From a virus (taxonomy: Duplodnaviria > Heunggongvirae > Uroviricota > Caudoviricetes), in the IMG/VR virus record IMGVR_UViG_2534681899_000005: a DNA stretch of 13,486 bases; one strand, written 5' to 3'. Shown here in pieces: positions 1 to 13,486 of this stretch; positions within the stretch are counted from its first letter, which is position 1, and each line of letters begins with the position of its first letter. A program made the position numbers and the translations under genes. The notes beneath the pieces were generated by a model that did not search any database, had not been told where the DNA came from, and saw only the letters and a list, made by a program, of their open reading frames with translations.

Positions 1-95
1 TTGGTGTGAACAGTCTTTCATGTTCTTTATGTATCAGTTGTCCTGTGTGGTGATTTGGTGGACTGCCCCAGGGGCCATACTTATGATGCCCGGTC
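1..95. repeat. Left copy of 95-bp terminal direct repeat
   Basis: Bases 1-95 are identical to 13392-13486. Contains CTGTGTGG and the inverted repeat GCCCCAGGGGC. The repeat is truncated by the window edge, so its true length may be larger. Confidence 0.9.
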
Positions 96-343
96 AACAT
101 AAGTGTCGATAAAATCAACGGGTGTTGATCTGCATATTTCCCACACATGAGAGGAAATCAGAGCAAAGAGAGAGGAGAGAGGTTTGCTAGTCAAATTAAA
201 GGATACTCCCACACAAGACAGTCTCATACATCAGATTTGAAGGGTGCTTATCTTTCCCCAGACTTGGCCCTTGACCTGTTGGGATTTCCTACAACCCCTT
301 TCAGTCATACTCAGGCACCACACCCCGGTAAATATTACCGCAC

Positions 344-541
344 TAACCTGTAAAGAATTTTCACACCTGTGTGTTTATACAGTCATACTCTCCTGTTTTG
401 CAGTCATTGCACCCATGATACACAGCCCCTAACCTGTCAAAATATTTTACTACCCCACCAATAATACGGCCCATACCTGTAAAATATTTTTACTACTACC
501 TGTCAAAATCTTTTACTACTACCTGTAAAAATATTTGACAC
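344..541. repeat. Iteron array: five direct 22-24-bp repeats, three contiguous; candidate replication origin
   Basis: Copies at 344-366, 430-453, 474-496, 497-519 and 520-541 share the core ACCTGT[A/C]AAAAT(A/C)TTTTACTAC; AT-rich context. Confidence 0.7.
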
Positions 542-1109
542 TAATAGATAAAGTAATAGACCACACAATAAATCCCCCCTAACCCCCCCAGGGGGAATGG
601 GGAGGGATCAGAGAGTGGGGAAGGTTTTCTAAGGGAAAAGCTTAACCCACAAATGAAAGCCTAAAGAGCATTAGTGACTCTTTAGGCAATCTGTGTGTGG
701 GTCACTCTGTGACTTTAGCTATACAGCTAAACCGACTACATCGGCCTGTGTGTGGGGTGACAATGTATTCCATACATGACACGTCACCCAATTGTGTGTG
801 GTCCGGCGAATGCGTCAGCATGAGGCCCACATGTGGACCGCTGCCGAAAGCTTGCCAGCGCCGGAAGGAGGCAGCAAAGAGTCTCCCGCGCTCATGTGTG
901 GGCGTATACGTAAGATATACATTCATAAATCCAATTCTAGGCACCTAAATGGCCTTCTGGCTGCATTAACCTGTGTGAGTAGTGCAATTGCATTACCTGA
1001 CCTCTAAATCGCGTTAGAATCGATTTTAGAGCGCTTAAGGCAAAAAGTGCCCTCCCTCCCTTGTGGGCTTGCTTGTACCTATAGCACACCTAAATGATAA
1101 TAATTCTCA

Positions 1110-1138
1110 TTGACAATTGGTTGACAATATGATAAGAT
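1110..1138 (+). promoter_or_regulatory. Candidate sigma70 promoter (TTGACA-17-TAAGAT), with a second TTGACAAT copy at 1121
   Basis: -35 TTGACA at 1110-1115 and -10-like TAAGAT at 1133-1138; TTGACAAT is duplicated 11 bp downstream. Confidence 0.3.
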
Positions 1139-1173
1139 TATAAATAGGGGGAGAAACAGATCCGGAGGTCAAT

Positions 1174-1323
1174 GTGGAAATTACTGATGCAATAGCGATC
1201 ATCAACCTGGCTGTACTGTGGTGCGGTGTTGCCTACATAGCCGGAGTAACTGCAATCGACAATCTTGAAGAAAAAATGATAGATAAATACAAAAAGATTG
1301 TTGACAATTTGACGAATGTCTGA
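1174..1323 (+). CDS. Hypothetical small hydrophobic peptide (49 codons, GTG start)
   Basis: GGAGG at 1164-1168 lies 5 nt before GTG 1174. The translation VEITDAIAIINLAVLWCGVAYIAGVTAIDNLEEKMIDKYKKIVDNLTNV has one predicted TM helix and a charged tail. Below the ORF-track size cutoff and overlaps the downstream promoter. Confidence 0.2.
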   Translation: MEITDAIAIINLAVLWCGVAYIAGVTAIDNLEEKMIDKYKKIVDNLTNV

Positions 1324-1329
1324 TAAAAT
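1301..1329 (+). promoter_or_regulatory. Strong sigma70-type promoter for the rightward Rep operon (TTGACA-17-TAAAAT)
   Basis: -35 TTGACA at 1301-1306, 17-bp spacer, -10 TAAAAT at 1324-1329; 125 bp upstream of the first operon ATG; near-identical to the minus-strand promoter at 10859-10887. Confidence 0.55.
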
Positions 1330-1454
1330 ATAAAGCATAGGGTAATTCTCATCATAGTGAATTTCCTTTAGTAGACTGGCGGGGGCTTGTATTAAGTTCC
1401 CGTTTCTTTTTAACCGTATATCGCACAGGCGGTGAGCTGACAGGAGATTGAATC

Positions 1455-1664
1455 ATGGCTAAAACCGGACCGATAAGCCAGCTTGTAAACTGGACTACTG
1501 ACGAAATCGTCGAGAACGTGCTTAAAGGTAACTTTCGAAAAACTTCCGTTTATGCATTTATTCGTAAACACAAAGGAGAATATCCACACATTGAAGCGGC
1601 AATAGAAAAACTTAACTTTATCCGTATTGAGCGTGAGCTGGAAAGATATAAACATCTACTTTGA
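1455..1664 (+). CDS. Small (69 aa) putative DNA-binding regulator
   Basis: ATG preceded by AGGAGA RBS; stop overlaps the TTG at 1661 of the next gene; basic, with an HTH-like segment (TTDEIVENVLKGNFRKTSVYAFIRKH). Family not recognised. Confidence 0.5.
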   Translation: MAKTGPISQLVNWTTDEIVENVLKGNFRKTSVYAFIRKHKGEYPHIEAAIEKLNFIRIERELERYKHLL

Positions 1665-1684
1665 TAAATAATTGTGAGGGAATT

Positions 1685-2590
1685 ATGGCAAACAATAAAC
1701 TGGGGGCACATTTCACCCCAATTTTTAAACGTTTCATCAAGTATAATTTTGAAAATCCAATTGCAAAAACTACAACAGGCAAAGAGAGATTTAATTTAAA
1801 TGCGACGGAATTGATAATTTACGGGGAAATGGTTGGCTTTCATTTAAACGGCAACGAAATATTCATCTCGGAGCAGACCTTAGCAGATGATTGGGATTTT
1901 TCAAGACCAACGATTATTAAAGCTATTAAATCTCTAGTAAATGCTGGGATTATTTCTAAAGATAACCGGAAAGGCAAATCTAACATTTACAAACTGTTAA
2001 TTACACCTGAGCAGTTTGATAAAATGTGCGATGAGCAGGGTATTAAAACCTTAGACAGTGTGGGAGACAGCAAAGAGGCACCTGCTACACAGGCCCAAGA
2101 TAATCAACAGGAAGCCCCAAAAAAAGCCGCACAGCAAGCTAAAAAGGCTAAAGTAGTGCAATTGCCTACCCAAGACACTAAAGCGCCTCAAATTAACGCT
2201 GTTAGTGACAAGCCACGCCGGGGCCGTCCTGTGAAAGATGCAACAGATGGAGGCTGGATCGCCCTGGGTGAGAGTGAGGCTAAAGGCATAATGCGATCAC
2301 TGTGGGAAAGCAAATACAAAGATTTAAACAAACGTCGCCCGATCCTTTTGTCAAAGATTCAGGAGGATTTTTACACCGCAGAAGAGGTAAGCCAACATAA
2401 AGGGAAAAGAGAGGGTGAAATCTGGAAACCGGAAGAATACTGGCATTTAACCAGACCTGTGTTTATTTTTGCAAATAAGCTTATTGGGATGGGATTTGAA
2501 ATATTGTTAGATAAAACCTGCGGAGATTATCCCGAAATATTGTGGAGAAATGTTAGAAAAAATAAAAAAGGCATTTTAGAGTTTAAATAA
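1685..2590 (+). CDS. Putative replication initiator / replisome-organiser-like protein (winged helix plus AT-hook)
   Basis: ATG 1685 with GAGGGA RBS (the track uses in-frame TTG 1661). N-terminal winged-helix-like region (..FISEQTLADDWDFSRPTIIKAIKSLVNAGIISKD..), P/Q/A/K-rich linker with AT-hook KPRRGRPVK, C-terminal domain. Iteron array lies about 1.1 kb upstream. Confidence 0.45.
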   Translation: MANNKLGAHFTPIFKRFIKYNFENPIAKTTTGKERFNLNATELIIYGEMVGFHLNGNEIFISEQTLADDWDFSRPTIIKAIKSLVNAGIISKDNRKGKSNIYKLLITPEQFDKMCDEQGIKTLDSVGDSKEAPATQAQDNQQEAPKKAAQQAKKAKVVQLPTQDTKAPQINAVSDKPRRGRPVKDATDGGWIALGESEAKGIMRSLWESKYKDLNKRRPILLSKIQEDFYTAEEVSQHKGKREGEIWKPEEYWHLTRPVFIFANKLIGMGFEILLDKTCGDYPEILWRNVRKNKKGILEFK

Positions 2591-2638
2591 AAACACTGAT
2601 AATCTTATTTTTTTACAGTATTCTAAAGGAAATTTAAA

Positions 2639-2785
2639 ATGTATGGCGATTTTGATTATTACCTGGAAAAGGAAAAATATTTTGAAGATGAACTATCACA
2701 ACATTTTTCATATTGGGAAGAATATTGTGGTTGGTTAGCTGAAGATCCAGCAGATGAAGAAAACGATTCTGACATCCCTTATTAA
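2639..2785 (+). CDS. Hypothetical small acidic protein (48 aa)
   Basis: ATG 2639 with AAAGGA RBS 8 nt upstream; translation MYGDFDYYLEKEKYFEDELSQHFSYWEEYCGWLAEDPADEENDSDIPY; below the track cutoff, found by hand. Confidence 0.3.
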   Translation: MYGDFDYYLEKEKYFEDELSQHFSYWEEYCGWLAEDPADEENDSDIPY

Positions 2786-2889
2786 TTAATATCCCCTGTT
2801 ATCCCCAAATAAACTAAATAAACTAATTACATATAGAACTAGAACTAGATTGATTTCTCTTTAATGTTAAATTGACTGGAGAATTAATC

Positions 2890-3375
2890 ATGTTCAAATC
2901 TGATCTTTCTGATTCCCAATTTGAAAAACTGGTAGCACTGCAGAAATATCTTCCCAGTGATGATCAACCAACACGACAGGCCAAACACTTATTAGTCGAG
3001 GGCTTTACCCCTGAATTCGTGGCGGAATATACAGGCGTTAAACTTGAGAAAGTCCAAAAACTATATAATGAATCCTGGAATCCACGGTGTCGAGTTCCCC
3101 TCAGTGTCTATAACGACACAGACAGAGATAGAAATGTCTTCGAAGATCGCCGCCGCAAATCTCTTTTAATGTGGAATTGCGGGATGAATATTGAAGAGAT
3201 AGCAAAAGAATTAAAAGTAACCTGCTTTCATATCTGGGGTTTGTTGAGTGAAATCCTGCCACGTAAGGAGCTTAATCAACGTTTGCCTAAGCCCGGTAGT
3301 CGTGCTTATCGCGAATTTATATTCATCTACCGCCGCCATAGCAATAAAGTCCGGAAAGCAATGCAGCGCAAATAG
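2890..3375 (+). CDS. Hypothetical DNA-binding protein with two HTH-like segments (161 aa)
   Basis: ATG 2890 with TGGAGA RBS (the track ORF starts at TTG 2872). Segments GFTPEFVAEYTGVKLEKVQKLY and GMNIEEIAKELKVTCFHIWGLL resemble resolvase or sigma-region-4 type HTH; basic C-terminus. Confidence 0.5.
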   Translation: MFKSDLSDSQFEKLVALQKYLPSDDQPTRQAKHLLVEGFTPEFVAEYTGVKLEKVQKLYNESWNPRCRVPLSVYNDTDRDRNVFEDRRRKSLLMWNCGMNIEEIAKELKVTCFHIWGLLSEILPRKELNQRLPKPGSRAYREFIFIYRRHSNKVRKAMQRK

Positions 3376-3433
3376 CTTATAGCCTTCACATATGCCGCAA
3401 GTTATTGATTCTGCCGTCCGGTAAATATGCCGG

Positions 3434-3907
3434 ATGGCTCATATAAATTTTAAGGAATTCCAAATGTCTCAAATCGCTAAATTATTATCCCAGGTTATCA
3501 AAGCTATCGACGCTGAAGATTCAAAAGTTCGCCAGGATCTTTTAGATGGCAAGTTTACCAACACCCTGGCATTTACCCGTGACAAAGAGCACTTCTTAAA
3601 GCACAGACATCACGCTTTCGCTGAATGCAAGTCCGCTAATGGTGATGTTTTCTATGTCGATTTGGTGGTTATGGCATGCCGGTTGTGGATGATTCAGGAC
3701 CTTATGCGCCAACACGGTGATGATCCTCTTATCAGCATGTGGAACAGCGCCCAGGATGGCTTTGTGATTGCTGCCTTATCTAAATCCATGATTGAGGCAG
3801 AAGGCGCAAGCCTTCAGAACATGGCAGATCTCTTTGAAATAAGCGTAGGAATGATGCAGACCATGCTGCAGGCGGTGAAGCCTCTCAAACTGGTTAATCT
3901 TGATTAA
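3434..3907 (+). CDS. Hypothetical protein (157 aa; alternative start ATG 3464)
   Basis: Long ORF co-directional with neighbours; ATG 3464 has a TAAGGAA RBS; no recognisable motifs. Confidence 0.5.
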   Translation: MAHINFKEFQMSQIAKLLSQVIKAIDAEDSKVRQDLLDGKFTNTLAFTRDKEHFLKHRHHAFAECKSANGDVFYVDLVVMACRLWMIQDLMRQHGDDPLISMWNSAQDGFVIAALSKSMIEAEGASLQNMADLFEISVGMMQTMLQAVKPLKLVNLD

Positions 3908-3922
3908 ACTATTGATAAATAA

Positions 3923-3947
3923 GCACTCCCCATTTTTTGGGGGGTGC
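3923..3947. other. Intergenic GC hairpin (GCACTCCCC-ATTTTTT-GGGGGGTGC)
   Basis: 9-bp stem with one G.T pair and a T-rich loop, between the 157-aa and 129-aa genes; no downstream U-tract on the plus strand. Confidence 0.4.
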
Positions 3948-3961
3948 ATCAATGAGAGGAT

Positions 3962-4351
3962 ATGCCTATGAATATTGAAGAAATGATAGTTGAATTCGAA
4001 GAGGGTGATTTCCTGGAGGATGGGGAGTTTAGTTACTCCCGTTTTAAACAGGCGTTATTTAGCAGCGAGGATAAACCACACGTTAGTGATCTTAACGACG
4101 ATGATTTATGTCGCTGGGTATGCACCCGCTTATATGAGGATGGAAAATATACAGGCCAAAACTTTCCAAATCTCTATTTCAAAGCACAAACATTTGAGGA
4201 AGGGCAAAGAGTGAAAAACCTGGTCGATAAAATGCTTTCAGCCGGATATTTGCATAAAGAATTATTAAATCCTAAAGCTGAAAGCAAGCGCCATTATATT
4301 TTTGTGTGGACTATTGGCGATAAGTGTCCACTAAGACGCAAAGGAAAATGA
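3962..4351 (+). CDS. Hypothetical acidic protein (129 aa; probable start ATG 3968)
   Basis: GAGAGGA RBS upstream; sits two genes before the tape-measure-like gene, so a tail-assembly-chaperone-like role is possible but unproven. Confidence 0.5.
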   Translation: MPMNIEEMIVEFEEGDFLEDGEFSYSRFKQALFSSEDKPHVSDLNDDDLCRWVCTRLYEDGKYTGQNFPNLYFKAQTFEEGQRVKNLVDKMLSAGYLHKELLNPKAESKRHYIFVWTIGDKCPLRRKGK

Positions 4352-4352
4352 T

Positions 4353-4589
4353 ATGAATACCTACGAAAAGATTTATCAAAAACTGGTTAAGGACTCCGAA
4401 GAGACGCACGAAGGGGTGACAGTAGGTCACCTGCCAGAGGCAGCGAAAGAGGGGGCCACCATTATTAAAAGTTGCTCCCACACAGAAGGCCTCTCAATCG
4501 AAGAGCTTGCGGAGAAATATAATATTGATAAAGAGGCCCTGAAAAGGGCTATTTCATTATCAAAATCTTTAAGACAGGGCGAGGTGTAA
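4353..4589 (+). CDS. Hypothetical protein (78 aa)
   Basis: ATG 1 nt after the preceding stop, AAGGA RBS; stop 3 nt before the tape-measure-like ATG, so tightly coupled. Confidence 0.5.
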   Translation: MNTYEKIYQKLVKDSEETHEGVTVGHLPEAAKEGATIIKSCSHTEGLSIEELAEKYNIDKEALKRAISLSKSLRQGEV

Positions 4590-4592
4590 GAG

Positions 4593-6719
4593 ATGGCAAT
4601 GAAGGAAGTCGCCAGACTAACAAACGTTATTTACTGGGATTCTGATAAATCCAGCTGGCGAAAAGAAGTTAAACGGCTTGAGGATTATAAAAAATCCTGG
4701 AAGAAAGCCACCGACGATATAGCTAAAGCGGATTTTAAATCGAATCAGGCTGTGCTCAGAACACAAAGAACACGCGCTAAGGTGGAAGAGCAGATTGCCA
4801 GAGCACAGAAGAAACAACGTGCTCAGGCTGTCAGCCGTCTGACCGGGGGCAATAATCCGGAGCTCTCCTCTATGCGCAAGTTCTACCAACAACAAGCCAG
4901 AGAAGCCGCCAGACAACAAAAACTGTTAGATCGTAGTGTTGGAGATGTTCAGCACAGAAAAGCACGTGTAGGGGCCAACAGTGCACGAATCAGCAGCATG
5001 TTTGATGGCTCCCTGGTTGCTCAGTTCCAATCCAGAATTCAGAGAGTTAATGCTGATTATGCTAAAGGGGCTATTAACCTGCAGACCTATAATCAGAAAA
5101 TGGCCCGACTCAGAGCTGAAATGAAGATGGCAACAGCAGAGGCCGGAAAATTTCAGAGCAGACTAGACAAAGCTGCGGTAGCAGGATCTAAGCTGCATGA
5201 CAACCTGGGGAAACTCAACTCCACACTTGGCAAGATAGCTATTGGCCTTACTGCCGCTGGCTGGGGTGTTCAGCGTGCTGTTAGTGGTGCTATGGGTAGC
5301 CTTGCAGATCGCAACAGTGCCTACTTCGGTTTGATGGCACAGAACAAGGATGATAAAGCCAAGACTGATCAGCAGATGGCTTTTATCAAGAACACAGCCT
5401 ACACCTACGGGATGGATGAGCGGGAGATGCAAGGTGGCTACATGCGCTTTGCTGCAGCTACCCCCACCATGAAGGAATCTGATAAGCAGGCTCTTTTTGA
5501 GGCTATGGCTATTAAAGGTCGCTCAGTGGGTGCTACTGGCGAGCAACAGAACAGGGCGCTTGTTGCGGTCCAACAAATGGCTTCAAAGGGAAAAGTTATG
5601 GCAGAAGAGCTGCGGGGCCAACTGTCAGAAGCCTTTGCAGGCTCACAACAGGATTTTCAACAGGCCGCTATTGATGCCGGAATCATCAAGAATGCCCAGG
5701 AATTCGATAAAGCCCTTAAAGATGGCAAAATCACCCTGGATAAGCTTCTCCCTTCTTTGGTGAAAATCTGGGGTGCTGCAAAAGAAACTAAAGCTTTTGC
5801 TGAATCCATGAAACAGCCAGAAGTAGCAATGCAGCGCATGAAAAACAGCTTTAACGAGCTGGCGATCCAGTTTATGGGTGTTGTAGATCCTGCAGATGGC
5901 GTTATTAGCTTATCTGAATCTCTGATCTCCATCTTCGAAGACCTCACTACTGATATGGACGGCAGCGGGAGCGCGGCAAAACAGTTTGGTGAGGCAGTCG
6001 GTGCTGCCATGCGGGAGATCATGTATTGGGTAGGCTTCGCTAAGGGATATATTGAGGTCAAGGCTAAAGAGTTCGGCATGACCGGATCAGAGGTTGGCGA
6101 GCTTATCGGGAAACTGGTAGTCGGCTTAGCTGGTCTGAAAGTTATTACCACACTGCTTTCCCCTCTAACCGGATTTGTTTCACTTGTCACCCAACTGATT
6201 TCTCTGATAGGCAAGATTCCAGGTCTGGGCAATCTCGTTAAGGGTGCAGGTGGTGCAGTCGCTGGAAGCCCAACAACAGCATTAGCCGCTGGCAGTGCCG
6301 CAGGTGTGGGTGTTGGTGTCGCTGGCGCACTGGGCGCTAAGACGGTAGGTGAGAAGTTCAGAGGATGGATGCAAAGCAAGGCTGATCAGTTCGGGGAGTG
6401 GGCTAAATCTAAAGGCCTGCTTAGCGATGAACAGGACGCTATGACCAAACCGGGGGCCTATAACCATAGCTACATCAACAAGGGAGCTTCTTTTAATCCA
6501 TATCCAACCATTAGCCCATCACGTCCTACTCCTAGCACTGGTACGGCTATTCAGAATGGTGGCTATCAACCTGCTCAGGTTAATGTGGTGCCTCAAGGTG
6601 AGATTTCCGGCAAATGGGAGATAACCATCGATGAGGGGGGAATTGCCAGGGTGATTCAGAAGGAAGTCAGCGATCAGTTGGATTGGAAAGCCACACAGGA
6701 ATCTAATCAGCTTTTCTAA
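4593..6719 (+). CDS. Phage tail tape-measure-like protein (708 aa)
   Basis: GAGGTG RBS then ATG 4593. N-terminal about 200 aa is Q/R/A/K-rich and coiled-coil-like; central ..GATGEQQNRALVAVQQMASKGKVMAEELRGQLSEAFAG.. resembles the conserved tape-measure core; C-terminal Gly/Ala-rich hydrophobic segments; no Walker A or catalytic motif seen. Confidence 0.6.
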   Translation: MAMKEVARLTNVIYWDSDKSSWRKEVKRLEDYKKSWKKATDDIAKADFKSNQAVLRTQRTRAKVEEQIARAQKKQRAQAVSRLTGGNNPELSSMRKFYQQQAREAARQQKLLDRSVGDVQHRKARVGANSARISSMFDGSLVAQFQSRIQRVNADYAKGAINLQTYNQKMARLRAEMKMATAEAGKFQSRLDKAAVAGSKLHDNLGKLNSTLGKIAIGLTAAGWGVQRAVSGAMGSLADRNSAYFGLMAQNKDDKAKTDQQMAFIKNTAYTYGMDEREMQGGYMRFAAATPTMKESDKQALFEAMAIKGRSVGATGEQQNRALVAVQQMASKGKVMAEELRGQLSEAFAGSQQDFQQAAIDAGIIKNAQEFDKALKDGKITLDKLLPSLVKIWGAAKETKAFAESMKQPEVAMQRMKNSFNELAIQFMGVVDPADGVISLSESLISIFEDLTTDMDGSGSAAKQFGEAVGAAMREIMYWVGFAKGYIEVKAKEFGMTGSEVGELIGKLVVGLAGLKVITTLLSPLTGFVSLVTQLISLIGKIPGLGNLVKGAGGAVAGSPTTALAAGSAAGVGVGVAGALGAKTVGEKFRGWMQSKADQFGEWAKSKGLLSDEQDAMTKPGAYNHSYINKGASFNPYPTISPSRPTPSTGTAIQNGGYQPAQVNVVPQGEISGKWEITIDEGGIARVIQKEVSDQLDWKATQESNQLF

Positions 6720-6792
6720 TGCTGGAAGATAGCGCAGCTTTACTGATATTGTGATCAAAATCAATAAGTTAGCCCGACCGGATAAACTCCAG

Positions 6793-6828
6793 GCAAGAAA
6801 AAAGCCCCTAAGTGTTAACAAAGGGGCT
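6793..6828 (-). terminator. Intrinsic terminator, clearest on the minus strand (possibly bidirectional)
   Basis: Stem AGCCCCT (6803-6809) / AGGGGCT (6822-6828) with a 12-nt loop. On the minus strand it is followed by TTTTTTCTT (complement of 6793-6802); on the plus strand only by CTCTTCTCC. Confidence 0.5.
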
Positions 6829-6849
6829 CTTCTCCGGTATCCTTTTGAT

Positions 6850-6964
6850 GCGGGGCGAACCTGCTAACAAAAATCAACCTCTCGCGAGACTAATGTTAGC
6901 AGGTTGCCGGAAGGTAAGTCAACTCCGGCCTATAAACCTTAAAGCGACTATAAAATCGCCCCGC
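6850..6964. other. Highly structured element with nested perfect inverted repeats (candidate structured RNA or protein-binding site)
   Basis: 9-bp outer stem GCGGGGCGA (6850-6858) / TCGCCCCGC (6956-6964) encloses a 10-bp stem CCTGCTAACA (6860-6869) / TGTTAGCAGG (6895-6904), whose loop holds the palindrome TCTCGCGAGA, plus hairpin GCCGGA / TCCGGC (6906-6929). Confidence 0.4.
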
Positions 6965-7246
6965 CAATTGTGATGATCCGACCTTTGAGGCGGGTCCGGT
7001 GCCCAGGGGGTGCAGTGATGCACAAACCAGGCAACGATAAACAGGCTAACAGTGATAGCGGCGCTCAATCAGCGCACTAAATCCTAACCAGTCCGGGAAA
7101 GAGGCTGGCTCTATCGACCGCTCATGCACGGGACAATGCATACCTGATAAAGGATTCTCACAAGGGACCAATCGCGAGAAAAGAAGTGGAAAGGGGCTGA
7201 TTTGTGGTGTATCACTACGGCCTCAAAAGAACACTATTGTCTTTTT

Positions 7247-7705
7247 TCAGCCTCTCCCCACATTTGACCAGTATTTGATTGCACCGATCAAATCATCATA
7301 GTGGCGCATTGCATCATTGAAGCCTTTATAGCTTGCCCATTGTGGGGAAACCTTGTTATTGCTGAATTGCCCACTAATCAGGATAGTCTCCAAAATGTCG
7401 GCGTATCGCTTGCCAATTCGCTTTCTGACGGCCTCAGAGCTCCCACCCTTTACGATTGCATTAATCAGGGCTTTTGTGTGTCTCAGGCTCTCATAGAGCA
7501 TTGCAGCGTGGGCAGATTCCATAAAGGAGCGCTTAGGCAGATCACCCCACCCCTCAGAATGAATTGCTGCCAGTGTGGCGTAATTCAGGCCGCTATAGTG
7601 TTTCCCGTCATCCCAGCCAACCGCTACACCTTCCATCTGTGAGAGCTCTTTATGCAGCTTATCCATCATGCGCTTGTCTATGGTGCAACGGACTTTCGGA
7701 CTCAT
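7247..7705 (-). CDS. Phage virion morphogenesis / head-tail joining protein (HK97 gp10 / Mu G-like), 152 aa
   Basis: Start overlaps the upstream stop by ATGA (7702-7705); motif ..NYATLAAIHSEGWGDLPKRSFMES.. resembles the Y-A-x-H-x-x-G...P-x-R-x-F signature of this family, recalled from memory. Confidence 0.4.
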   Translation of the reverse strand: MSPKVRCTIDKRMMDKLHKELSQMEGVAVGWDDGKHYSGLNYATLAAIHSEGWGDLPKRSFMESAHAAMLYESLRHTKALINAIVKGGSSEAVRKRIGKRYADILETILISGQFSNNKVSPQWASYKGFNDAMRHYDDLIGAIKYWSNVGRG

Positions 7706-8514
7706 TTGTTGATCTCCGTGATGTCATCGAGCAACATGTTGGCCTTATCAATCATCGTTTCGTGGAACTCATTCGACACAACAGACTTATCACCTGCGGC
7801 AATCTTTCCCGCTGCCTCTCCCTGTGCATATTCCCCGCGATGCTTAGCCCTGGTTGATTTCGTAGCAGCGTTGCCAGCGTTGCTACCCTCTTTAGCACTG
7901 TTAACAGCGCCCTTTTGCTGTGTTTTATTCACCTTCTTACTGTTAGTGAAAACTCCGGCATTTTCGACCATCTTCACCTTGAAGGTGCGGAATTCTTCAA
8001 AAGTGCAATCAATAGTGATGCAGTCACCAGAGGAAGAGCTACGCTTAACTTCACATTTCGTCATGATGAAGTTCTCAAGGAGTCCGGCATCTTCACTTAC
8101 CAGGCTAACTAGCTGGCGCTTGTCTCTCATTTCCATAAGTGCCTGAACAGCGGCAGCAGGGCGCATAGATTCACGGGGATTATCTGGATCAGTGTTCCGG
8201 TCGATGTAGTTCTCTTTCCGGATGATATGAGGGGAAGAGGTAATAATGCCCGTAAAGCTGACAGATTTATCTTTAATGACGGCATGGTCTGACATGGTGG
8301 TGCCATCCTCGACCGCATAGCTCGATTTCTCGACAGGGAACGAATAGCTGACATCAGAGATTGAGTCAAAGAAGATAGCCACGTTATCGGTATAGTTGAA
8401 GCCATCCATTATATTTTTGTTTTGTGAATATCCCCCACACATAACAGTGAATGCAGGAGATCTCGATTCAGCTTGTTTTGCAGCTGTCAGAGCATCACTA
8501 GCCATATTAAACAT
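7702..8514 (-). CDS. Hypothetical protein, possibly phage structural (270 aa)
   Basis: Long ORF in the capsid operon, translationally coupled to the next gene; C-terminal half is low-complexity K/A/G/N-rich; no family recognised. Confidence 0.45.
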   Translation of the reverse strand: MFNMASDALTAAKQAESRSPAFTVMCGGYSQNKNIMDGFNYTDNVAIFFDSISDVSYSFPVEKSSYAVEDGTTMSDHAVIKDKSVSFTGIITSSPHIIRKENYIDRNTDPDNPRESMRPAAAVQALMEMRDKRQLVSLVSEDAGLLENFIMTKCEVKRSSSSGDCITIDCTFEEFRTFKVKMVENAGVFTNSKKVNKTQQKGAVNSAKEGSNAGNAATKSTRAKHRGEYAQGEAAGKIAAGDKSVVSNEFHETMIDKANMLLDDITEINK

Positions 8515-8610
8515 GCCTCCAAAATGAATCTTTTCGTTGCCCTGCTTAAAATCTGCAGAAAATACAGGGCAGTTATTCGTTAGAATCGCTTATAGCTCTT
8601 CCCGAGAGCG

Positions 8611-8862
8611 TTATTTTGCAAAACGATTATGCGCATTCAGGGCTTTTTTGCGGTCCTGGGCTTGTTTGCGTGCAATAAAATGTTCGAAAGTCTCGGCCCA
8701 GGTGCATTTATTATATTCACGGTATTTATGCATAGCCTGGCGGCTAACGTCATAGCAGGCGGCAAATGTGGAGATACGCAGGAATTCCGGCAGATCCTCG
8801 TCATCGATATGGATAATATCAAAAGGCACGTCGTCACGGTCGCCGTATAAAACAATTTTCAT
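8611..8862 (-). CDS. Hypothetical small protein (83 aa from ATG; track ORF extends to GTG at 8871)
   Basis: GAGGTG RBS 6 nt before the ATG (complement of 8860-8862); acidic N-terminus, basic C-terminus with a possible HTH (FAACYDVSRQAMHKYRE). Confidence 0.4.
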   Translation of the reverse strand: MKIVLYGDRDDVPFDIIHIDDEDLPEFLRISTFAACYDVSRQAMHKYREYNKCTWAETFEHFIARKQAQDRKKALNAHNRFAK

Positions 8863-8975
8863 AAAAGACACCTCAAAAACTTAAGACGGGGATAATAAAA
8901 AAGGGAAGAGGGAAAGACCTATCCCCGATCTCTCACCTCTTCCCTTTGCTTTTATTTGGCCTTCGAAGAAGGACC

Positions 8976-10022
8976 TTATTTAGCCTTGGCTTTTGCCAGA
9001 GCAGCGGCGGCGGAGTTACTAACACTCACTTTAACCACAACTTCAGGCATCATGTTCATGAAAGCATAAGAGGATTCAATGAAGATTTCTCGTTTACCTC
9101 TGGACTCTTCCATATACATGAAAGCTTCACGTGCAGCGCCGTTTGCAAGCTTCAGGTTGCGAGCGCAAGGGCCGAAAAATTGAGTATAAACGCCCACCAT
9201 ATCGCCTAACGCATGCGGCTGGAACTGTGGGACCAGATAAGCAGTATTCTCTGGCAGACTATCCATTTGCACCACACGCAGAGCTAAGCCTGGAATGCGG
9301 AAAGTCGGGAAGCCCGGCAGAATATCCTCAGGGAACATCAGACCTTTATCGGTAATATTCTGATTGCCGAACAACAGCACTTTTCGCAACAGTTCATCAG
9401 TCTGAATTGCAGCAAAGAGTTCAGCACGGCAGAACAGGGTGAAACCACGCAGAGCACGAACGACACCACGCTGTTTAACCTTGCTCAGTGCAACCAGGTC
9501 CTGCAGTTGTTTGAGGATGTCTTGAGCTAGATCCACTTCAGAGGTGGACTGTTCCACGCCCAGCAGTTCGCACACATTCAGTTCTTTACCCTTGGTGAGG
9601 ATAATTTTGTTCTCAAAGAGAGCAAGCTGGCGTGCTTCTTCGTGGGTCTGGCGTAAGCCTTCACCCAACTGAATAACACGACGAGCGGTTACAGACTCTA
9701 AATTCTCTTCGGAATCTTTGCCCGGAACACGGATACCTTGCCAGTCAGAAGGATAAATAGCACTTGATGCGGCAGTGAATGCCATATCACCCGTGCCCGT
9801 TTCACGCTCATCTGCGGTAATGGTAGCCATCTGTTCACCGTAGCGCGGATACTGACCGAAAGCGGATTGTTTCACCTGGCGAACTTTGTCATATTCAAAT
9901 TTAAAGGTATTGCACAGAGCAGTAGTGTTGAAGATATCCATTGCTGAAATAATCTGGTTATCCAGCGGGATATCTTTAATCAGACCACACAGATCGCGAA
10001 CTTCGAATTCTTTCTTAGCCAT
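8976..10022 (-). CDS. Putative major capsid protein, lambda gpE-like (348 aa)
   Basis: ATG (complement of 10020-10022) with AAGGAGG RBS 6 nt upstream; the track ORF starts at in-frame TTG. Size and C-terminal segment (..KREIFIESSYAFMNMMPEVVVKV..) resemble lambda E-family capsid proteins as recalled; follows a ~110-aa gene as in lambda D-E. Not searched. Confidence 0.45.
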   Translation of the reverse strand: MAKKEFEVRDLCGLIKDIPLDNQIISAMDIFNTTALCNTFKFEYDKVRQVKQSAFGQYPRYGEQMATITADERETGTGDMAFTAASSAIYPSDWQGIRVPGKDSEENLESVTARRVIQLGEGLRQTHEEARQLALFENKIILTKGKELNVCELLGVEQSTSEVDLAQDILKQLQDLVALSKVKQRGVVRALRGFTLFCRAELFAAIQTDELLRKVLLFGNQNITDKGLMFPEDILPGFPTFRIPGLALRVVQMDSLPENTAYLVPQFQPHALGDMVGVYTQFFGPCARNLKLANGAAREAFMYMEESRGKREIFIESSYAFMNMMPEVVVKVSVSNSAAAALAKAKAK

Positions 10023-10033
10023 TTTCAACCTCC

Positions 10034-10369
10034 TTATTGTGCAACACGCAAATCGCCATTGCTGGCAGCAATAACAGCGGCTAAGCCGTCTTTATCCACG
10101 TAGGCCGGATTGATATAACAGCCCTTGTTGGCAACAACGATAAAAGCGTCGCCAACTTCAGCACGTTCTACAACCAGCAGCGGAGTTTTATCTGTGTGCG
10201 TTGCTTTAACGAAGGTCTCAACCTCGCCAGCCTCAGTTACCACAACAACAGTGCCAGCCGGAATCTCAGCTTTAACTTTGTTTTTAATTTCAACGTCGCG
10301 AATACTAAATTGCTCATCTGCGGCGTATGAAATGATGTGTCCGCGTGTGCGGATAGTCATATCTTTCAT
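10034..10369 (-). CDS. Putative head decoration protein, lambda gpD-like (111 aa)
   Basis: AGGTGA RBS then ATG (complement of 10367-10369); beta-rich small protein directly upstream of the capsid candidate; first gene after the promoter. Confidence 0.35.
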   Translation of the reverse strand: MKDMTIRTRGHIISYAADEQFSIRDVEIKNKVKAEIPAGTVVVVTEAGEVETFVKATHTDKTPLLVVERAEVGDAFIVVANKGCYINPAYVDKDGLAAVIAASNGDLRVAQ

Positions 10370-10667
10370 TTGATCACCTGCGATTTAAATTAACTCCCCT
10401 CAAAGAGTTCCGGTATAACCTCTCAAACCACGACAGGCTCGGGCCGAAAAGTTATGCCGGAAATCTAAAGGGAAATTGATACAAGGAGAGGGAGATAGCC
10501 CCGCACCGTCCAAGCGGGGGCTATTCCACATGGGGAAACCGACAACAGTCGGATGATAGTTCACAGTATGATTACGGTTACTAGAGAGCACTATCACGAA
10601 AGGCACTCCCCCGGATCAGTTCAGGCTGCGGTCACATCAGCGGGGAAATACCTTTCGGGATAGCTAC

Positions 10668-10701
10668 CCACACAGAAAACCCGCAAAAGAAAACTGTGTG
10701 G
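10668..10701. promoter_or_regulatory. Inverted repeat CCACACAG-N18-CTGTGTGG in the capsid-operon leader
   Basis: Perfect 8-bp arms at 10668-10675 and 10694-10701; lies in the roughly 480-nt leader between promoter and decoration gene; overlaps TGTGGATAA. Confidence 0.35.
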
Positions 10702-10850
10702 ATAACTAGCCCAATAGGAGAATTAATCGACCACTCAACGATGATCAGGGTAGTGTTATTTATAAGGCGGCACCGCTACCTGGTCGCCTTTACTTTGGAG
10801 GAAAATACGGCAAATCAAGATCTTCTCAAATGATATTGATTCCATACTAT

Positions 10851-10870
10851 ACTGTATATTATATCAGTAT
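10851..10870. promoter_or_regulatory. LexA-box-like palindrome (SOS operator candidate)
   Basis: Minus strand reads TACTGATATAATATACAGTA, which keeps CTG-N10-CAG with an AT-rich spacer (consensus TACTGTATATATATACAGTA); overlaps the -10 of the capsid-operon promoter. Confidence 0.5.
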
Positions 10871-10887
10871 TCTCTCAAATTGTCAAC
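10859..10887 (-). promoter_or_regulatory. Consensus sigma70 promoter for the leftward capsid operon (TTGACA-17-TATAAT)
   Basis: Minus strand reads gtgTTGACAatttgagagaatactgaTATAATat: -35 at 10882-10887, -10 at 10859-10864, exact 17-bp spacer. Confidence 0.6.
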
Positions 10888-11193
10888 ACCCTGATTATAT
10901 AAATTCTAATAATTAGCGTGGTAACTGTATTTTCAGACCTCTATCAATCCCATCAATACGTCACCCCACCCTTTAGATGCATACATCCGACCTACTTTGT
11001 AGGCTTGGCGTACTGCCAAGGTCGCAGCTATGCGACTCCTATCTATCACCACTTTATAAAGCTTGATAGATATCTTTTGATCAATATCAATGTTTTCCAG
11101 GGATTTACCCGGCTATAGTTCGAATCAAGGAAGGGGAGCATTGATAGCACCCAACCGAGCAAACAAATCAACTTCTCGCAAAAGGTGATAGTT

Positions 11194-11316
11194 ATGGGTA
11201 TCAAGAACAGTGCCAGCGCATGGCAAAAGGCCAGGTTTCATCACCCACACATTGTTAAGGCAATTGAGGTGGTTGGAGTTTTAGCCCTGATGTTAGCTCT
11301 GTGTGTGGAGGTGTGA
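11194..11316 (+). CDS. Hypothetical small hydrophobic peptide (40 aa)
   Basis: AAGGTGA RBS 6 nt before the ATG; translation MGIKNSASAWQKARFHHPHIVKAIEVVGVLALMLALCVEV has a C-terminal TM-like segment; its leader shares a 15-nt motif with the 173-aa gene leader. Confidence 0.25.
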   Translation: MGIKNSASAWQKARFHHPHIVKAIEVVGVLALMLALCVEV

Positions 11317-11380
11317 GATAGGCAAAGGAGGCAAAGCATTTTTTAATAGGTCTGGCAGTCTTAGATTTTGTATTAATCAT

Positions 11381-11423
11381 CATTGAGCGGAGTTTATGAA
11401 CAGCATTGAGAGGAGTTTATGAC
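11381..11423 (+). repeat. Tandem duplication of a translation-initiation region, with an 8-codon upstream ORF coupled by ATGA
   Basis: CATTGAGCGGAGTTTATGAA (11381-11400) is followed by a near-identical second copy (11404-11423, CATTGAGAGGAGTTTATGAC); mini-ORF 11396-11422 (MNSIERSL) stops at TGA overlapping the main ATG at 11419. Confidence 0.45.
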
Positions 11424-11679
11424 GGGGGCTAAAGATATCAGGAGACTGAGGGAAGAGCTGATAGCTGAAATTAAAGCTAAGGCAAAGCAAATGGAGATAG
11501 CCGCACAAATGGATGTAGCGGAACAGATGTACAAGATGGTTGAAGAGGGAACACCACGACAGGTTATCGCTAAAACCTTCGGTGTGGGGATCGCCACCGT
11601 GCACAGAAGGCTGAAAGCCTATGCCGACTACCACAATATCGAGAGAAAGGAGGATGGGAGATTTAAGAAGAATAAATAG
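11419..11679 (+). CDS. Small HTH DNA-binding protein (resolvase/Fis-type HTH), 86 aa
   Basis: GAGAGGAG RBS; coiled-coil-like N-terminus; C-terminal GTPRQVIAKTFGVGIATVHRRLKAY matches the Hin/resolvase-type HTH pattern; no recombinase catalytic domain. Confidence 0.5.
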   Translation: MTGAKDIRRLREELIAEIKAKAKQMEIAAQMDVAEQMYKMVEEGTPRQVIAKTFGVGIATVHRRLKAYADYHNIERKEDGRFKKNK

Positions 11680-11736
11680 TAGGAACAGTCCAACAGGTTA
11701 TTAACTAAATTCAACTTCTCGCAAAGGGGTACCATT

Positions 11737-12258
11737 ATGTTATTTCAGAAAGATAAAGAATCAGTAAATAAAAGGCTTTTTAAAGAACTGGTAAAAATGT
11801 TCTTTCAGTACACTGCAGCGTTTTTGATAGCCGGGCCTTGGTTAATGGCTATCTGTTTTTACCCTGCTACCTTGTTTATTGGCAGTAGCAAGTTCGGCGA
11901 TGGCCCGTTTCATGTGGATATTGGTTTTATAGATTCTCTCCTGATCCGTCCTATAAATGCTGTTCTCAATGCTTTCTACTTCCCCACTAGTCTAGAGGGG
12001 TGGGCGGTAACCTGGGGTGTTTTAGGCTTAGCATATGTATATTGGTTGGTTGGCTTTTTGTGGGGTGCAATCTGTGCTCTCCTCGATATTGATACAGGAT
12101 CAAGCCGTAGGAGTGGTGGTAATAATAGCGGAGCGGGTGTATATGCACATGTAGGCACCAGGGGAGCTAGTGTTACCGCAGGTACCCGATTCGCTGGCGG
12201 CTGGCTGAGCATAGGCAAACGCGGCGTTAGTTGGAGAAAAAGCAAAAAACTGTTCTGA
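11737..12258 (+). CDS. Hypothetical membrane protein (173 aa, 2-3 predicted TM helices)
   Basis: ATG 11737 with a leader containing TCAACTTCTCGCAAA; hydrophobic segments (AAFLIAGPWLMAICFYPATLFIG; GWAVTWGVLGLAYVYWLVGFLWGAICALL); Gly/Ser/Arg-rich tail; followed by a terminator. Confidence 0.5.
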   Translation: MLFQKDKESVNKRLFKELVKMFFQYTAAFLIAGPWLMAICFYPATLFIGSSKFGDGPFHVDIGFIDSLLIRPINAVLNAFYFPTSLEGWAVTWGVLGLAYVYWLVGFLWGAICALLDIDTGSSRRSGGNNSGAGVYAHVGTRGASVTAGTRFAGGWLSIGKRGVSWRKSKKLF

Positions 12259-12265
12259 CCTACCA

Positions 12266-12292
12266 GGGGGGCCATCACGGCCCCTTTTTATT
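12266..12292 (+). terminator. Rho-independent terminator
   Basis: GC stem GGGGCC / GGCCCC with loop ATCAC, followed by TTTTTATTTAT; 8 nt after the stop at 12258. Confidence 0.75.
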
Positions 12293-12366
12293 TATCCCTT
12301 ATTTACACTCCTTTCAGTCCTGATCATCACTCCCTACGGTAATGAGCAATTAACCCCTATTTAAGG

Positions 12367-12408
12367 GGTATTTAATGGGTATTTAATGCCTATTTATTGA
12401 TTTAATCC
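12367..12408. repeat. 11-bp tandem repeats (GGTATTTAATG x2 plus degenerate copies)
   Basis: GGTATTTAATG at 12367-12377 and 12378-12388, then CCTATTTATTG and ATTTAATCC; preceded by CCCCTATTTAAGGGG; related palindrome GGTATTAATACC at 12871-12882. Confidence 0.5.
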
Positions 12409-13099
12409 GTTTTATGCCACAACCGCCCGGTTGACAGAGTAAGAGAGAGGGTGTAACCCTTTTTCGTAAAACCAATAAAATCAATAGCTTAGCTCAATTG
12501 GCCTTTTCTCTGTTTTTGTCAAATTTAACATGCCCTCAAAAACTGCAAAATCTGGCTGCAAGATTATCTGCAGCTGGATTTCTTACACCTCAATTTGTGG
12601 TATCACCCTGACTAGTTTGTGCATAAAATGAACAGTTTTTAACATTTCCTATTCACCTGGTAACCACACAAAAAGCTAAAAACGAGGCACAGATAATCTT
12701 AGAGGCCTGTTTTCTTGTTATCACTCTGGGAACGTCGTAGAAGTGATTTTGATGAAAGACGGCCTACCCTATTACACCCCCATTTTTTGTTATCACAATT
12801 GCATCCTGTGCGGTATATGACTATGTGCTGAAAGCGGTCTCAGGTGTGGGTGTCAGAAATATCCATTAGCGGTATTAATACCCGTCAGATGTTCGTCTGA
12901 GGTGCCAGGCAGGCGCTCCCCTACCTCCCCTTTTTCTTCTAACAATTCTCAAATATCACACCACTGCCCACCACGTTGCTATTATGTTAATTCTTAAGCT
13001 TTGCTTTATGTTGTGCACATTATTTATTCAGGTGCGTGTACGTAAATTCTGGGCCTCCTTATCACGATTTTTAAATCAGATTTTGTAGTGCGCTTTATT

Positions 13100-13127
13100 A
13101 GTGTAGATAAGATCTATTATGTTAAAT
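13100..13127 (+). promoter_or_regulatory. Candidate Xer recombination site (dif/psi-like)
   Basis: AGTGTAGATAA-GATCTA-TTATGTTAAAT: right arm is identical to the E. coli dif XerD arm as recalled; 6-bp centre resembles pSC101 psi (GATCCA); left arm is degenerate versus GGTGCGCATAA (5 of 11). Confidence 0.35.
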
Positions 13128-13391
13128 GCAATTTTCCCAACCCTTCAAATCAATGACTTACATGTAAGCATGCACTAACACCCCACACAGCACATTAGAC
13201 GTGTAGATGTCCATATCCCACATTTTTGATTGTTTTGTAGTCATTCCCCTGATCATTTAACCAGTATAGTTTGTTCTCTGCAGACCACAAAATCGGAATT
13301 TACATCTGATTAACATAATCTGTTAGCATGATCACCATTACCCACACAACAATAACCCCATGCAAGCCTCTTCAGGCAATTTATCGGCGTG

Positions 13392-13486
13392 TTGGTGTGA
13401 ACAGTCTTTCATGTTCTTTATGTATCAGTTGTCCTGTGTGGTGATTTGGTGGACTGCCCCAGGGGCCATACTTATGATGCCCGGTC
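13392..13486. repeat. Right copy of 95-bp terminal direct repeat
   Basis: Exact match to 1-95 on the same strand. Confidence 0.9.

Follow-up and report, generated by a model that had tools for sequence, protein, structure and literature searches.

A heptamer enriched on an Escherichia coli plasmid family and in an rV5-like phage genome: a possible recognition word of a Vequintavirus system

The window analysed here is the whole 13,486-nt stretch of the virus record IMGVR_UViG_2534681899_000005, and the question that it raises is why one short word, the heptamer TGTGTGG (CCACACA on the opposite strand), recurs so often along it. A preliminary description, made from the sequence alone, had read the heptamers as arm-type binding sites for a recombinase, Rep or packaging protein at the ends of the element. 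We found that the window is a circular 13,391-bp (13.4-kb) non-mobilizable E. coli plasmid, that the heptamer is specifically enriched in its plasmid family and in one genome of the genus Vequintavirus (rV5-like phages), that the plasmid and these phages have homologous genes and a homologous non-coding element, and that the word stands at the junctions of an array of hairpin modules. Tentatively, this points to a double-stranded DNA word read by a phage factor.

An exact search of both strands gave 22 matches to TGTGTGG/CCACACA in the window, when 200 dinucleotide-preserving shuffles gave 1.54 +/- 1.19 (maximum 5). Since bases 1-95 are the same as 13392-13486, the copies at 44 and 13435 are a single site, and 21 unique sites remain in 13,391 bp. 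Under a second-order Markov model, the heptamer was the top-ranked 7-mer (21 copies versus 2.5-2.6 expected, z ~11.5) and TGTGTGGG the top over-represented 8-mer (11 versus 0.6 expected). All 21 single-substitution variants were near background, none clearly enriched, and G came next after 21 of the 30 TGTGTG copies, which excludes a (TG)n microsatellite; shuffles, Markov expectation and substitution table together rule out a microsatellite or compositional artefact. The sole robust flank preference, common to the plasmid sites and to the phage sites described below, was for G, with C avoided, at +7 (the eighth position), while an A at +18 and a T at -3 of the plasmid sites were not common to the phage. 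The strong over-representation noticed in the preliminary description was thus borne out (21 unique sites versus ~1.5-2.5 expected), and 16 of its 17 positions were exact; the one placed at 885 lies at 895, and five sites had been missed (1584, 8435, 9985 and 11245 on the minus strand and 4303 on the plus strand).

The heptamer is not equally common in the host; an equal frequency there would, by the preliminary description, have refuted its reading. E. coli K-12 contained 10 copies per 150 kb (0.067/kb) versus 12.6 expected and lambda 5 versus 4.9, and the density in the window (1.57/kb) was 23-fold that of K-12, with a Poisson probability of ~8e-22 for at least 21 sites at the host rate. With K-12 and lambda at background, the enrichment is specific to the element, and a host-wide frequency of the word is ruled out as its cause. 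A scan of IMG/VR for heptamer-triplet patterns returned unrelated tandem repeats, and searches of open-access papers for the raw heptamer were uninformative.

The linear form of the record proved misleading. The following features define the molecule and its origin:

1-95, identical to 13392-13486: assembly overlap, exact; the relatives are circular and the alignment is collinear through the junction.
346-542, plus strand: five iterons of 22 bp (ACCTGTCAAAATATTTTACTAC type; repeat families D2 and D10), presumed to be the replication origin and the Rep binding sites and to be distinct from the heptamer.
1661-2590: Rep, lambda-O/DnaD-like.

The window matched five circular non-mobilizable E. coli plasmid records at ~91-96% identity over most of its length, four of them of 13.2-13.7 kb and one of 39.6 kb made of three tandem copies. 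In the latter (NZ_CP043822.1, 39,610 bp), the structural genes of one copy are rearranged; this record may represent a true multimer or an artefact of long-read assembly. Among 5,426 complete E. coli genomes, the element was present in seven, at nine places, all on plasmids, and no chromosomal copy was found. All relatives were collinear with the window across the junction. The two arms of the preliminary description are therefore one ~2.2-kb non-coding region split by linearisation, the element has no ends, and the terminal repeat in which one copy had been placed is the assembly overlap; that copy is real. The clustering itself is also real, with 15 of the 21 sites inside 3.55 kb of non-coding DNA (P=2e-5), and coding regions held six sites versus 1.8 expected (P=0.011). 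The cluster at 690-900 was as described (sites 694, 749, 795 and 895, at intervals of 55, 46 and 100 bp), but these clusters lie beside the replication origin and a promoter leader and not at termini. Plasmid heptamers lay in both orientations, with no bias relative to transcription and with several on either strand of coding regions.

We scored the conservation of each site over 16 aligned family genomes:

44-50 (the same as 13435-13441), plus strand: heptamer, intact in 6 of 16.
141-147, minus strand (CCACACA on the plus strand): heptamer left of the origin, 16 of 16.
209-215, minus strand: heptamer specific to the window, in a hypervariable stretch, 1 of 16.
561-567, minus strand: heptamer adjoining the 572-598 hairpin, 7 of 16.
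694-901, plus strand: heptamers at 694, 749, 795 and 895, bounding modules A, B and D.
1584-1590, minus strand: heptamer within a 69-aa open reading frame (ORF), 10 of 16.
4303-4309, plus strand: heptamer within a 129-aa ORF, 14 of 16.
4478-4484, minus strand: heptamer within a 78-aa ORF, 7 of 16.
6691-6697, minus strand: heptamer at the 3' end of the tape-measure gene, 13 of 16.
8435-8441, minus strand: heptamer on the sense strand of the tail-tube-initiator gene, in its 5' part, 16 of 16.
9985-9991, minus strand: heptamer on the sense strand of the capsid gene, in its 5' part, 16 of 16 and also in the 72%-identical relative L009.
10668-10701: inverted pair CCACACAG-N18-CTGTGTGG in the ~480-nt leader between promoter P3 and the structural operon; the site at 10668 intact in 16 of 16 and that at 10695 in 10 of 16.
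11245-11308: inverted pair, 57 bp apart, in a 41-codon hydrophobic ORF; the site at 11245 intact in 13 of 16 and that at 11302 in 16 of 16.
12664-12670, minus strand: heptamer in a conserved ORF-free region left of the origin, 16 of 16.
13183-13189, minus strand: heptamer in the conserved ORF-free region, 13 of 16.
13342-13348, minus strand: heptamer in the conserved ORF-free region, 14 of 16.

About half of the sites (141, 4303, 6691, 8435, 9985, 10668, 11245, 11302, 12664, 13183 and 13342) were thus intact in at least 13 genomes, and those at 44, 209, 561 and 4478 turned over across the family. The divergent relative L009 retains both heptamers of the 11245/11302 pair together with their spacing. 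Each of 15 complete family plasmids carried 14-21 heptamers versus ~2.4 expected, and the word was the top-ranked 7-mer in 14 of them and the runner-up in the other, so that it stays at the top despite an overall identity of 85-93% and the turnover of sites.

The densest group of sites belongs to an array of hairpin modules right of the origin, located between two minus-strand terminator-like hairpins (572-598 and 659-687) and the first promoter:

702-746, plus strand: module A.
758-792, plus strand: module B.
802-894, plus strand: module D.
831-891, plus strand: core of module D, with 85-87% identity to an unannotated intergenic element of 119 rV5-like phages.

Across 17 plasmids, the catalogue of modules was small: A, which consists of three mini-hairpins and has the variants A', A'' and A'''; B, a single long hairpin; C, of 88 nt; and D or D', which closes the array. 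(TG)2-3TGG(G) preceded every one of them. The arrays differed by whole modules and were all ordered subsets of C-A-B-A'-D/D', a variation for which deletion between direct heptamer repeats is a sufficient explanation. The array is not a CRISPR array, given a boundary word of only 8-12 nt (CRISPR repeats are at least 23 nt) and 'spacers' that form a small catalogue of conserved hairpin modules. It is not an integron cassette array either, as there is no integrase, the modules are 35-100 nt long and without ORFs, and the boundary word is TGTGTGG and not GTTRRRY.

A sensitive search with positions 560-1140 as the query matched 119 phage records, nearly all of them Vequintavirus or unclassified rV5-like phages. 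In KP869112, the E. coli O157 typing phage 14, TGTGTGGG is followed at this locus by a D-like module of 115 nt, by TGTGTGG and by AGGCCCCTAAATAGCC, so that the layout of heptamer, module and heptamer is identical to that around plasmid module D, and the D-like locus was kept in three further phages. Compensatory changes keep one stem in both versions, as CTGCC/GGCAG on the plasmid and as CCGAC/GTCGG on the phage genome, and the hairpin 5' of the phage element was also found in an insertion of plasmids L003 and L134. The phage locus lies in a 510-bp intergenic gap near a divergent gene-block boundary, with the tRNA cluster ~2 kb and the terminase genes ~4 kb downstream of it. Directly 5' of the D-like element (KP869112.1 ~44,990-45,040; L145 19,650-19,720), three palindromic copies of TGTCCGT-N3-ACGGACA are followed by an AT-rich stretch; this motif, which looks like an operator or origin site, is absent from the plasmid.

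The phage genome also carries the word in excess. KP869112 (132 kb) contained 51 heptamers versus 19.3 expected (rank 5 of 8,103) and 20 copies of TGTGTGGG versus 3.7 expected (rank 3), and only the -35-like TGTTGACA family ranked above the heptamer. Most of these copies are inside genes, and their orientation was unrelated to transcription, with 25 runs along the genome versus 26 expected. Nine lie at 44.6-47.6 kb, around the early/late divergent boundary and including the D-like element, and nine at 83.8-86.8 kb, mostly in a ~2.5-kb gene-free stretch with several sigma-70-like promoters; several copies are arranged as hairpin, CCACACA, Shine-Dalgarno sequence and ATG, in early-type genes. 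The gene-free region corresponds to the 'non-coding' box of the rV5 genome paper, which described sigma-70 promoters and a T4-late-like motif besides that box and did not have the heptamer among them (PMC3606486). Within it (KP869112.1 84,480-86,980; L147 19,790-22,300), three heptamers stand exactly 402 bp apart without underlying long repeats. Among the genomes examined, phage enrichment was confined to this one Vequintavirus genome, of the same genus that has the D element: PVP-SE1, of the same subfamily and with a Salmonella host, had 13 heptamers in its first 100 kb versus 13.1 expected, and phi92 had three in its first 50 kb versus 6.2. A T7-gp4-like primase site (template TGTGTGG giving pppACACA), appealing in principle, is weakened as a candidate, since PVP-SE1 has the same primase-helicase and is not enriched and the polarity of the plasmid sites about the origin was not significant (P=0.09).

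The second link to these phages is in the proteins. All ORFs of at least 60 aa were scanned with PHROGs, Pfam and NCBIfam, and all plasmid proteins were compared with KP869112 by tblastn, which gave three matches only, to the first three products listed here:

4593-6719, plus strand: tape-measure protein, 25% identity over 577 aa to the Vequintavirus tape measure (E=8e-21).
7247-7705, minus strand: 152-aa tail-completion/neck protein (phrog_222), 45% identity to the Vequintavirus protein (E=2e-34).
7702-8514, minus strand: Dit-like tail-tube initiator (PF21821), 50% identity to the Vequintavirus protein (E=5e-61).
8976-10028, minus strand: major capsid protein, downstream of the gene for a 111-aa protein.

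Across the phage collection, the best matches of the tail-tube initiator were Vequintavirinae. The capsid protein is of the lambda-E type and the 111-aa protein has the size of the lambda decoration protein gpD, both being encoded within 8976-10369 on the minus strand. No close phage relative of the capsid protein was found; distant relatives (31-43% identity) had the lambda-E capsid domain and the same gene order, and a pattern scan of IMG/VR and GTDB genomes found no capsid relatives. A tail initiator, tail-completion protein and tape measure related to rV5 together with a lambda-E capsid are an odd mixture when set against any known satellite class. As in phage satellites, the virion gene set is incomplete: capsid, decoration-sized, tape-measure, tail-tube-initiator and tail-completion genes are present, and the PHROGs and Pfam scans found no portal, terminase, tube or sheath among the plasmid genes.

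Taken together, these observations lead us to favour, tentatively and at somewhat less than even confidence, the reading that a factor specific to Vequintavirus recognises the heptamer on double-stranded DNA and that a satellite-like plasmid has this word in concentrated form. As homology between the two genomes is limited to the D locus, the enrichment is independent over the greater part of each, which argues for selection for the same word in two replicons tied by gene content and by a common cis element. Its occurrence in both orientations and on both gene strands, with a strict 7-8-bp definition, suggests that duplex DNA, and not RNA, is read by a sequence-specific factor, and the preference for G and avoidance of C at +7 in both genomes is consistent with one recognition specificity. 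What we infer here is a binding protein for the word, its encoding by the phage, and the process that it might serve. TGTGTGG(G) would be a short exact word of an rV5-like phage system, and the plasmid a satellite-like parasite, possibly an antagonist, of virulent rV5-like phages, bearing diverged copies of three phage tail genes and one structured non-coding element. The plasmid has the word at 3-4 times the phage density, mainly at the origin flanks, in the structural-operon leader (10668/10695) and between modules. A Vequintavirus-specific DNA-binding factor reading the word during infection might then treat the plasmid as phage-type DNA, so that it is switched on, amplified and/or packaged, or might be soaked up by the plasmid copies. 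A protein recognition site with a possible link to packaging, as the preliminary description had proposed, is therefore the leading class, whereas its recombinase, Rep and arm specifics fail.

Several results weigh against this reading. The helper-satellite relationship is proposed from homology alone, and no small plasmid protein had a detectable homologue in KP869112 by tblastn. The Vequintavirus enrichment comes from one genome, KP869112. PVP-SE1 and phi92 share replication and packaging enzymes with it and are not enriched, and this genus restriction indicates that the factor would be Vequintavirus-specific and not part of the conserved replication and packaging core (primase-helicase or terminase). 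In a six-genome alignment of close siblings, 68% of the motif columns were invariant versus 69% of the flanks; as the motif is no better conserved than its surroundings, any selection would act on number or density and not on position, or the sites would be by-products. Finally, the distant relatives L009, L130 and L131 had only 0-0.6 sites/kb in fragments of 3.7-6.8 kb. The first of these (Logan SRR3146357 contig, 4,875 bp; capsid 81% identical in amino acids and ~72% in nucleotides) has three heptamers only and is enriched for another octamer, GATAGCCA/TGGCTATC (5 copies versus 0.18 expected).

A more far-reaching version, which we regard as doubtful, is that the plasmid family may be an undescribed autonomously replicating satellite of virulent rV5-like myophages and TGTGTGG a genus-specific 'phage-identity' word, by which the helper's machinery would tell DNA to be spared, amplified or packaged from that of the host, the satellite overloading itself with this word and copying a heptamer-punctuated structured element of the helper. 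Open-access papers yielded no description of the plasmid family, of a Vequintavirus satellite or of the heptamer. Satellites of strictly virulent phages are rare, with the PLE of Vibrio cholerae as the main example, and plasmid-borne satellites with tail-assembly genes are undescribed as far as the open-access literature searched goes. Phages of the genus Vequintavirus are often considered for phage therapy and biocontrol, and the plasmid is found in human, animal and food-chain E. coli; if the reading is true, a plasmid that parasitises or interferes with these phages bears on phage efficacy and on gene transfer. An exact 7-mer also offers a simple, testable handle: one may mutate it, fish for the binding factor with it or search with it as a k-mer signature of elements tied to the genus. 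The analysis further draws attention to a structured element that is conserved in rV5-like genomes and lacks annotation.

Satellite-helper cis signals and dispersed recognition words are of a known kind. As in P4/P2 (with Ogr/Delta-responsive TGT-N12-ACA late promoters and a common cos), in SaPI and in PLE, recognition sequences and structural homologues of the helper are found on a small element whose virion gene set is incomplete, and the signal is specific to one helper lineage. Unlike them, the element here is a free plasmid that is never integrated, its putative helper is a large virulent myovirus, and a solitary 7-8-mer is dispersed ~20 times instead of a few promoter or cos sites; lambda-type cos is absent from the plasmid. 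Short repeats also mark packaging sites, as in the P1 pac hexamers TGATCA/G and in the T7 SRL/SRR heptamer arrays beside the terminal repeat, although the function of the T7 arrays is itself uncertain. These resemble our clusters in having a 6-7-bp word at distances of tens of bp in non-coding phage-related DNA, and differ in that ours are not associated with a cleavage site, a terminase gene or a genome end and copies also lie in genes. In the records used, the genome ends of Vequintavirus carry no annotation.

The alternative that survives best, though we consider it unlikely, is that the heptamer is a junction or micro-homology word without a dedicated binding protein, a linker at module boundaries through which recombination or slippage shuffles, deletes and exchanges modules between phage and plasmid, as in the T4-type PeSL cassettes. 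It accounts well for the word in front of every module, for the presence or absence of whole modules as ordered subsets, for the same word bounding the phage copy of module D and for window-specific sites (209 and 4478) in mosaic or hypervariable stretches. It leaves unexplained the invariant solitary sites at 141, 8435, 9985, 10668, 11302 and 12664, in conserved DNA without indels, and the 51 dispersed, mostly intragenic phage sites; moreover, deletion between direct repeats presupposes the repeats, and their origin is not accounted for. PeSL cassettes and integron arrays (core GTTRRRY) likewise have a short conserved sequence at each module boundary and relatives that differ by whole modules, but our modules are sets of hairpins, 35-100 nt long and devoid of ORFs, the plasmid lacks an integrase, attI and any promoter-stem-loop unit, and deletions suffice.

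An RNA-level role, in which CCACACA/UGUGUGG would be a single-stranded linker or a processing or binding motif within a modular structured RNA of phage and plasmid and in some 5' leaders, seems improbable. The folding of the modules speaks for it: the variants of module A keep their three stems by compensatory changes (GTCAC/GTGAC versus GTGCC/GGCAC, TTTAGCT/AGCTAAA versus CTTAGCC/GGCTAAG, and CCGAC/GTCGG versus CCC/GGG), with the heptamers unpaired in the minus-strand folds, and module D has its own compensatory stem. The two terminator-like hairpins (687-659 and 598-572) lie just downstream of the array on the minus strand, and several phage copies stand in the arrangement hairpin-CCACACA-Shine-Dalgarno-ATG. 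It is opposed by the mixed orientation of the sites relative to likely transcripts in both genomes and by the many sites within ORFs on either strand. The phage element is co-oriented with plus-strand genes, while the plasmid terminators suggest transcription of the minus strand. In addition, the alignment-wide consensus fold was weak on both strands (-13.0 and -8.9), and Rfam gave no family at E<=1 apart from a chance ctRNA match.

We give equally little credence to a housekeeping role, in which a conserved plasmid protein, for example the 86-aa helix-turn-helix (HTH) protein (94-100% conserved), would bind the word to partition the plasmid, control its copy number or repress genes globally, with no connection to the enrichment in the phage. 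The sites are concentrated to the left and right of the origin and within promoter leaders, several small conserved plasmid proteins are encoded, some of them HTH-like, and dispersed centromere or operator sites are present in the prophage-plasmids N15 and P1. However, the family scans found neither ParA/ParB nor other known partition genes, centromeres and operators of the known types are longer or contiguous, and the rank-5 enrichment in the phage together with a heptamer-flanked common module would need a coincidence. The stoperators of mycobacteriophage L5 and the P1 C1 operators resemble the heptamers in that one asymmetric site recurs many times, inside and outside genes, but those sites are 13-17 bp long and tolerate mismatches, and stoperators are oriented with transcription, whereas ours are 7-8 bp long and exact, without orientation bias. 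Dispersed operators or stoperators were rejected on these grounds, the plasmid site being 7-8 bp with only a G preference at +7 and in mixed orientation to genes, and no repressor was identified. DnaA boxes were also rejected, as only 10697-10705 is a perfect TTATCCACA and the one-mismatch excess stems from the common CCACA.

A Chi-like or nuclease-protection word, which would attenuate a host or phage helicase-nuclease so that phage or satellite DNA survives, is very improbable. Like Chi (GCTGGTGG) and genome-signature oligomers, the heptamer is an exact, short, G-rich and strongly over-represented word, and it ends in GTGG as Chi does; canonical Chi had no copies in the family members checked, and the conserved origin-flanking sites face away from the origin. 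KP869112 is enriched in the Chi-like GTTGGTGG (22 versus 5.8) and has canonical Chi four times. Unlike Chi, the heptamer has another sequence and is enriched on mobile elements and not in K-12 (10 versus 12.6 in 150 kb), its orientation away from the iterons was not significant (14 of 21 sites, P=0.09), and the phage sites lack polarity. The reading with which we began, arm-type recombinase or Rep sites at the ends of an integrative element, fits the non-coding clusters at both ends of the linearised window but can hardly hold for a circular molecule that is absent from all 5,426 chromosomes, encodes no integrase, resolvase catalytic domain or other recombinase (the sole 'recombination' label being the 86-aa stand-alone bare HTH protein) and has separate Rep iterons, hypervariable among siblings, with Rep alleles that diverge to 28% identity (median 65%) while the heptamer stays unchanged.

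The remainder of the plasmid shows how its genes may be expressed. A promoter module (TTGACAAT...-17-TA(A/T)AAT) is present in three copies, at 1110-1138 and 1301-1329 on the plus strand and at 10886-10858 on the minus strand. The three strong sigma-70 promoters (1110, 1301 and 10886) are without the heptamer, and a promoter element with a fixed -10 was therefore rejected as an explanation for it. The promoter at 10886 matches TTGACA-17-TATAAT perfectly, has an extended TG and drives the structural operon by way of the ~480-nt leader; it is overlapped by a LexA-box-like TACTGTATATTATATCAGTA (10850-10869), whose left CTGT half-site was present in only four of six siblings. A terminator-like hairpin (1378-1404, plus strand) lies ~45 nt 3' of the 1301 promoter and 5' of the 69-aa and Rep genes, which suggests that the replication-gene leader is attenuated or controlled by antitermination.

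From 12290 to 13391 and on to 1-140, ~1.2-1.4 kb have no ORF of at least 50 aa, are nearly free of indels and are highly conserved in the family. This region holds AT-rich direct repeats (GGTATTTAATG, 12365-12395) and a 20-nt inverted repeat (12395-12414/12467-12486). Homology of its 1.2-kb conserved part to the gene-free region of the phage was rejected, as the comparison gave just one 24-nt match above shuffled controls and a database BLAST gave nothing. No tRNAs were found in the window. Two small hydrophobic ORFs are encoded on the plus strand, at 11194-11319 (41 codons, with two heptamers) and at 1174-1323 (49 codons). The first of them has a 32-nt leader, AACTTCTCGCAAA(A/G)GG... (repeat D12), in common with the gene for a 173-aa membrane protein (11737-12258, plus strand). 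This gene was present in only five of 15 relatives. In the rest, its position is taken by unrelated ORFs of 195-239 aa, which suggests a variable slot for accessory or cargo genes.

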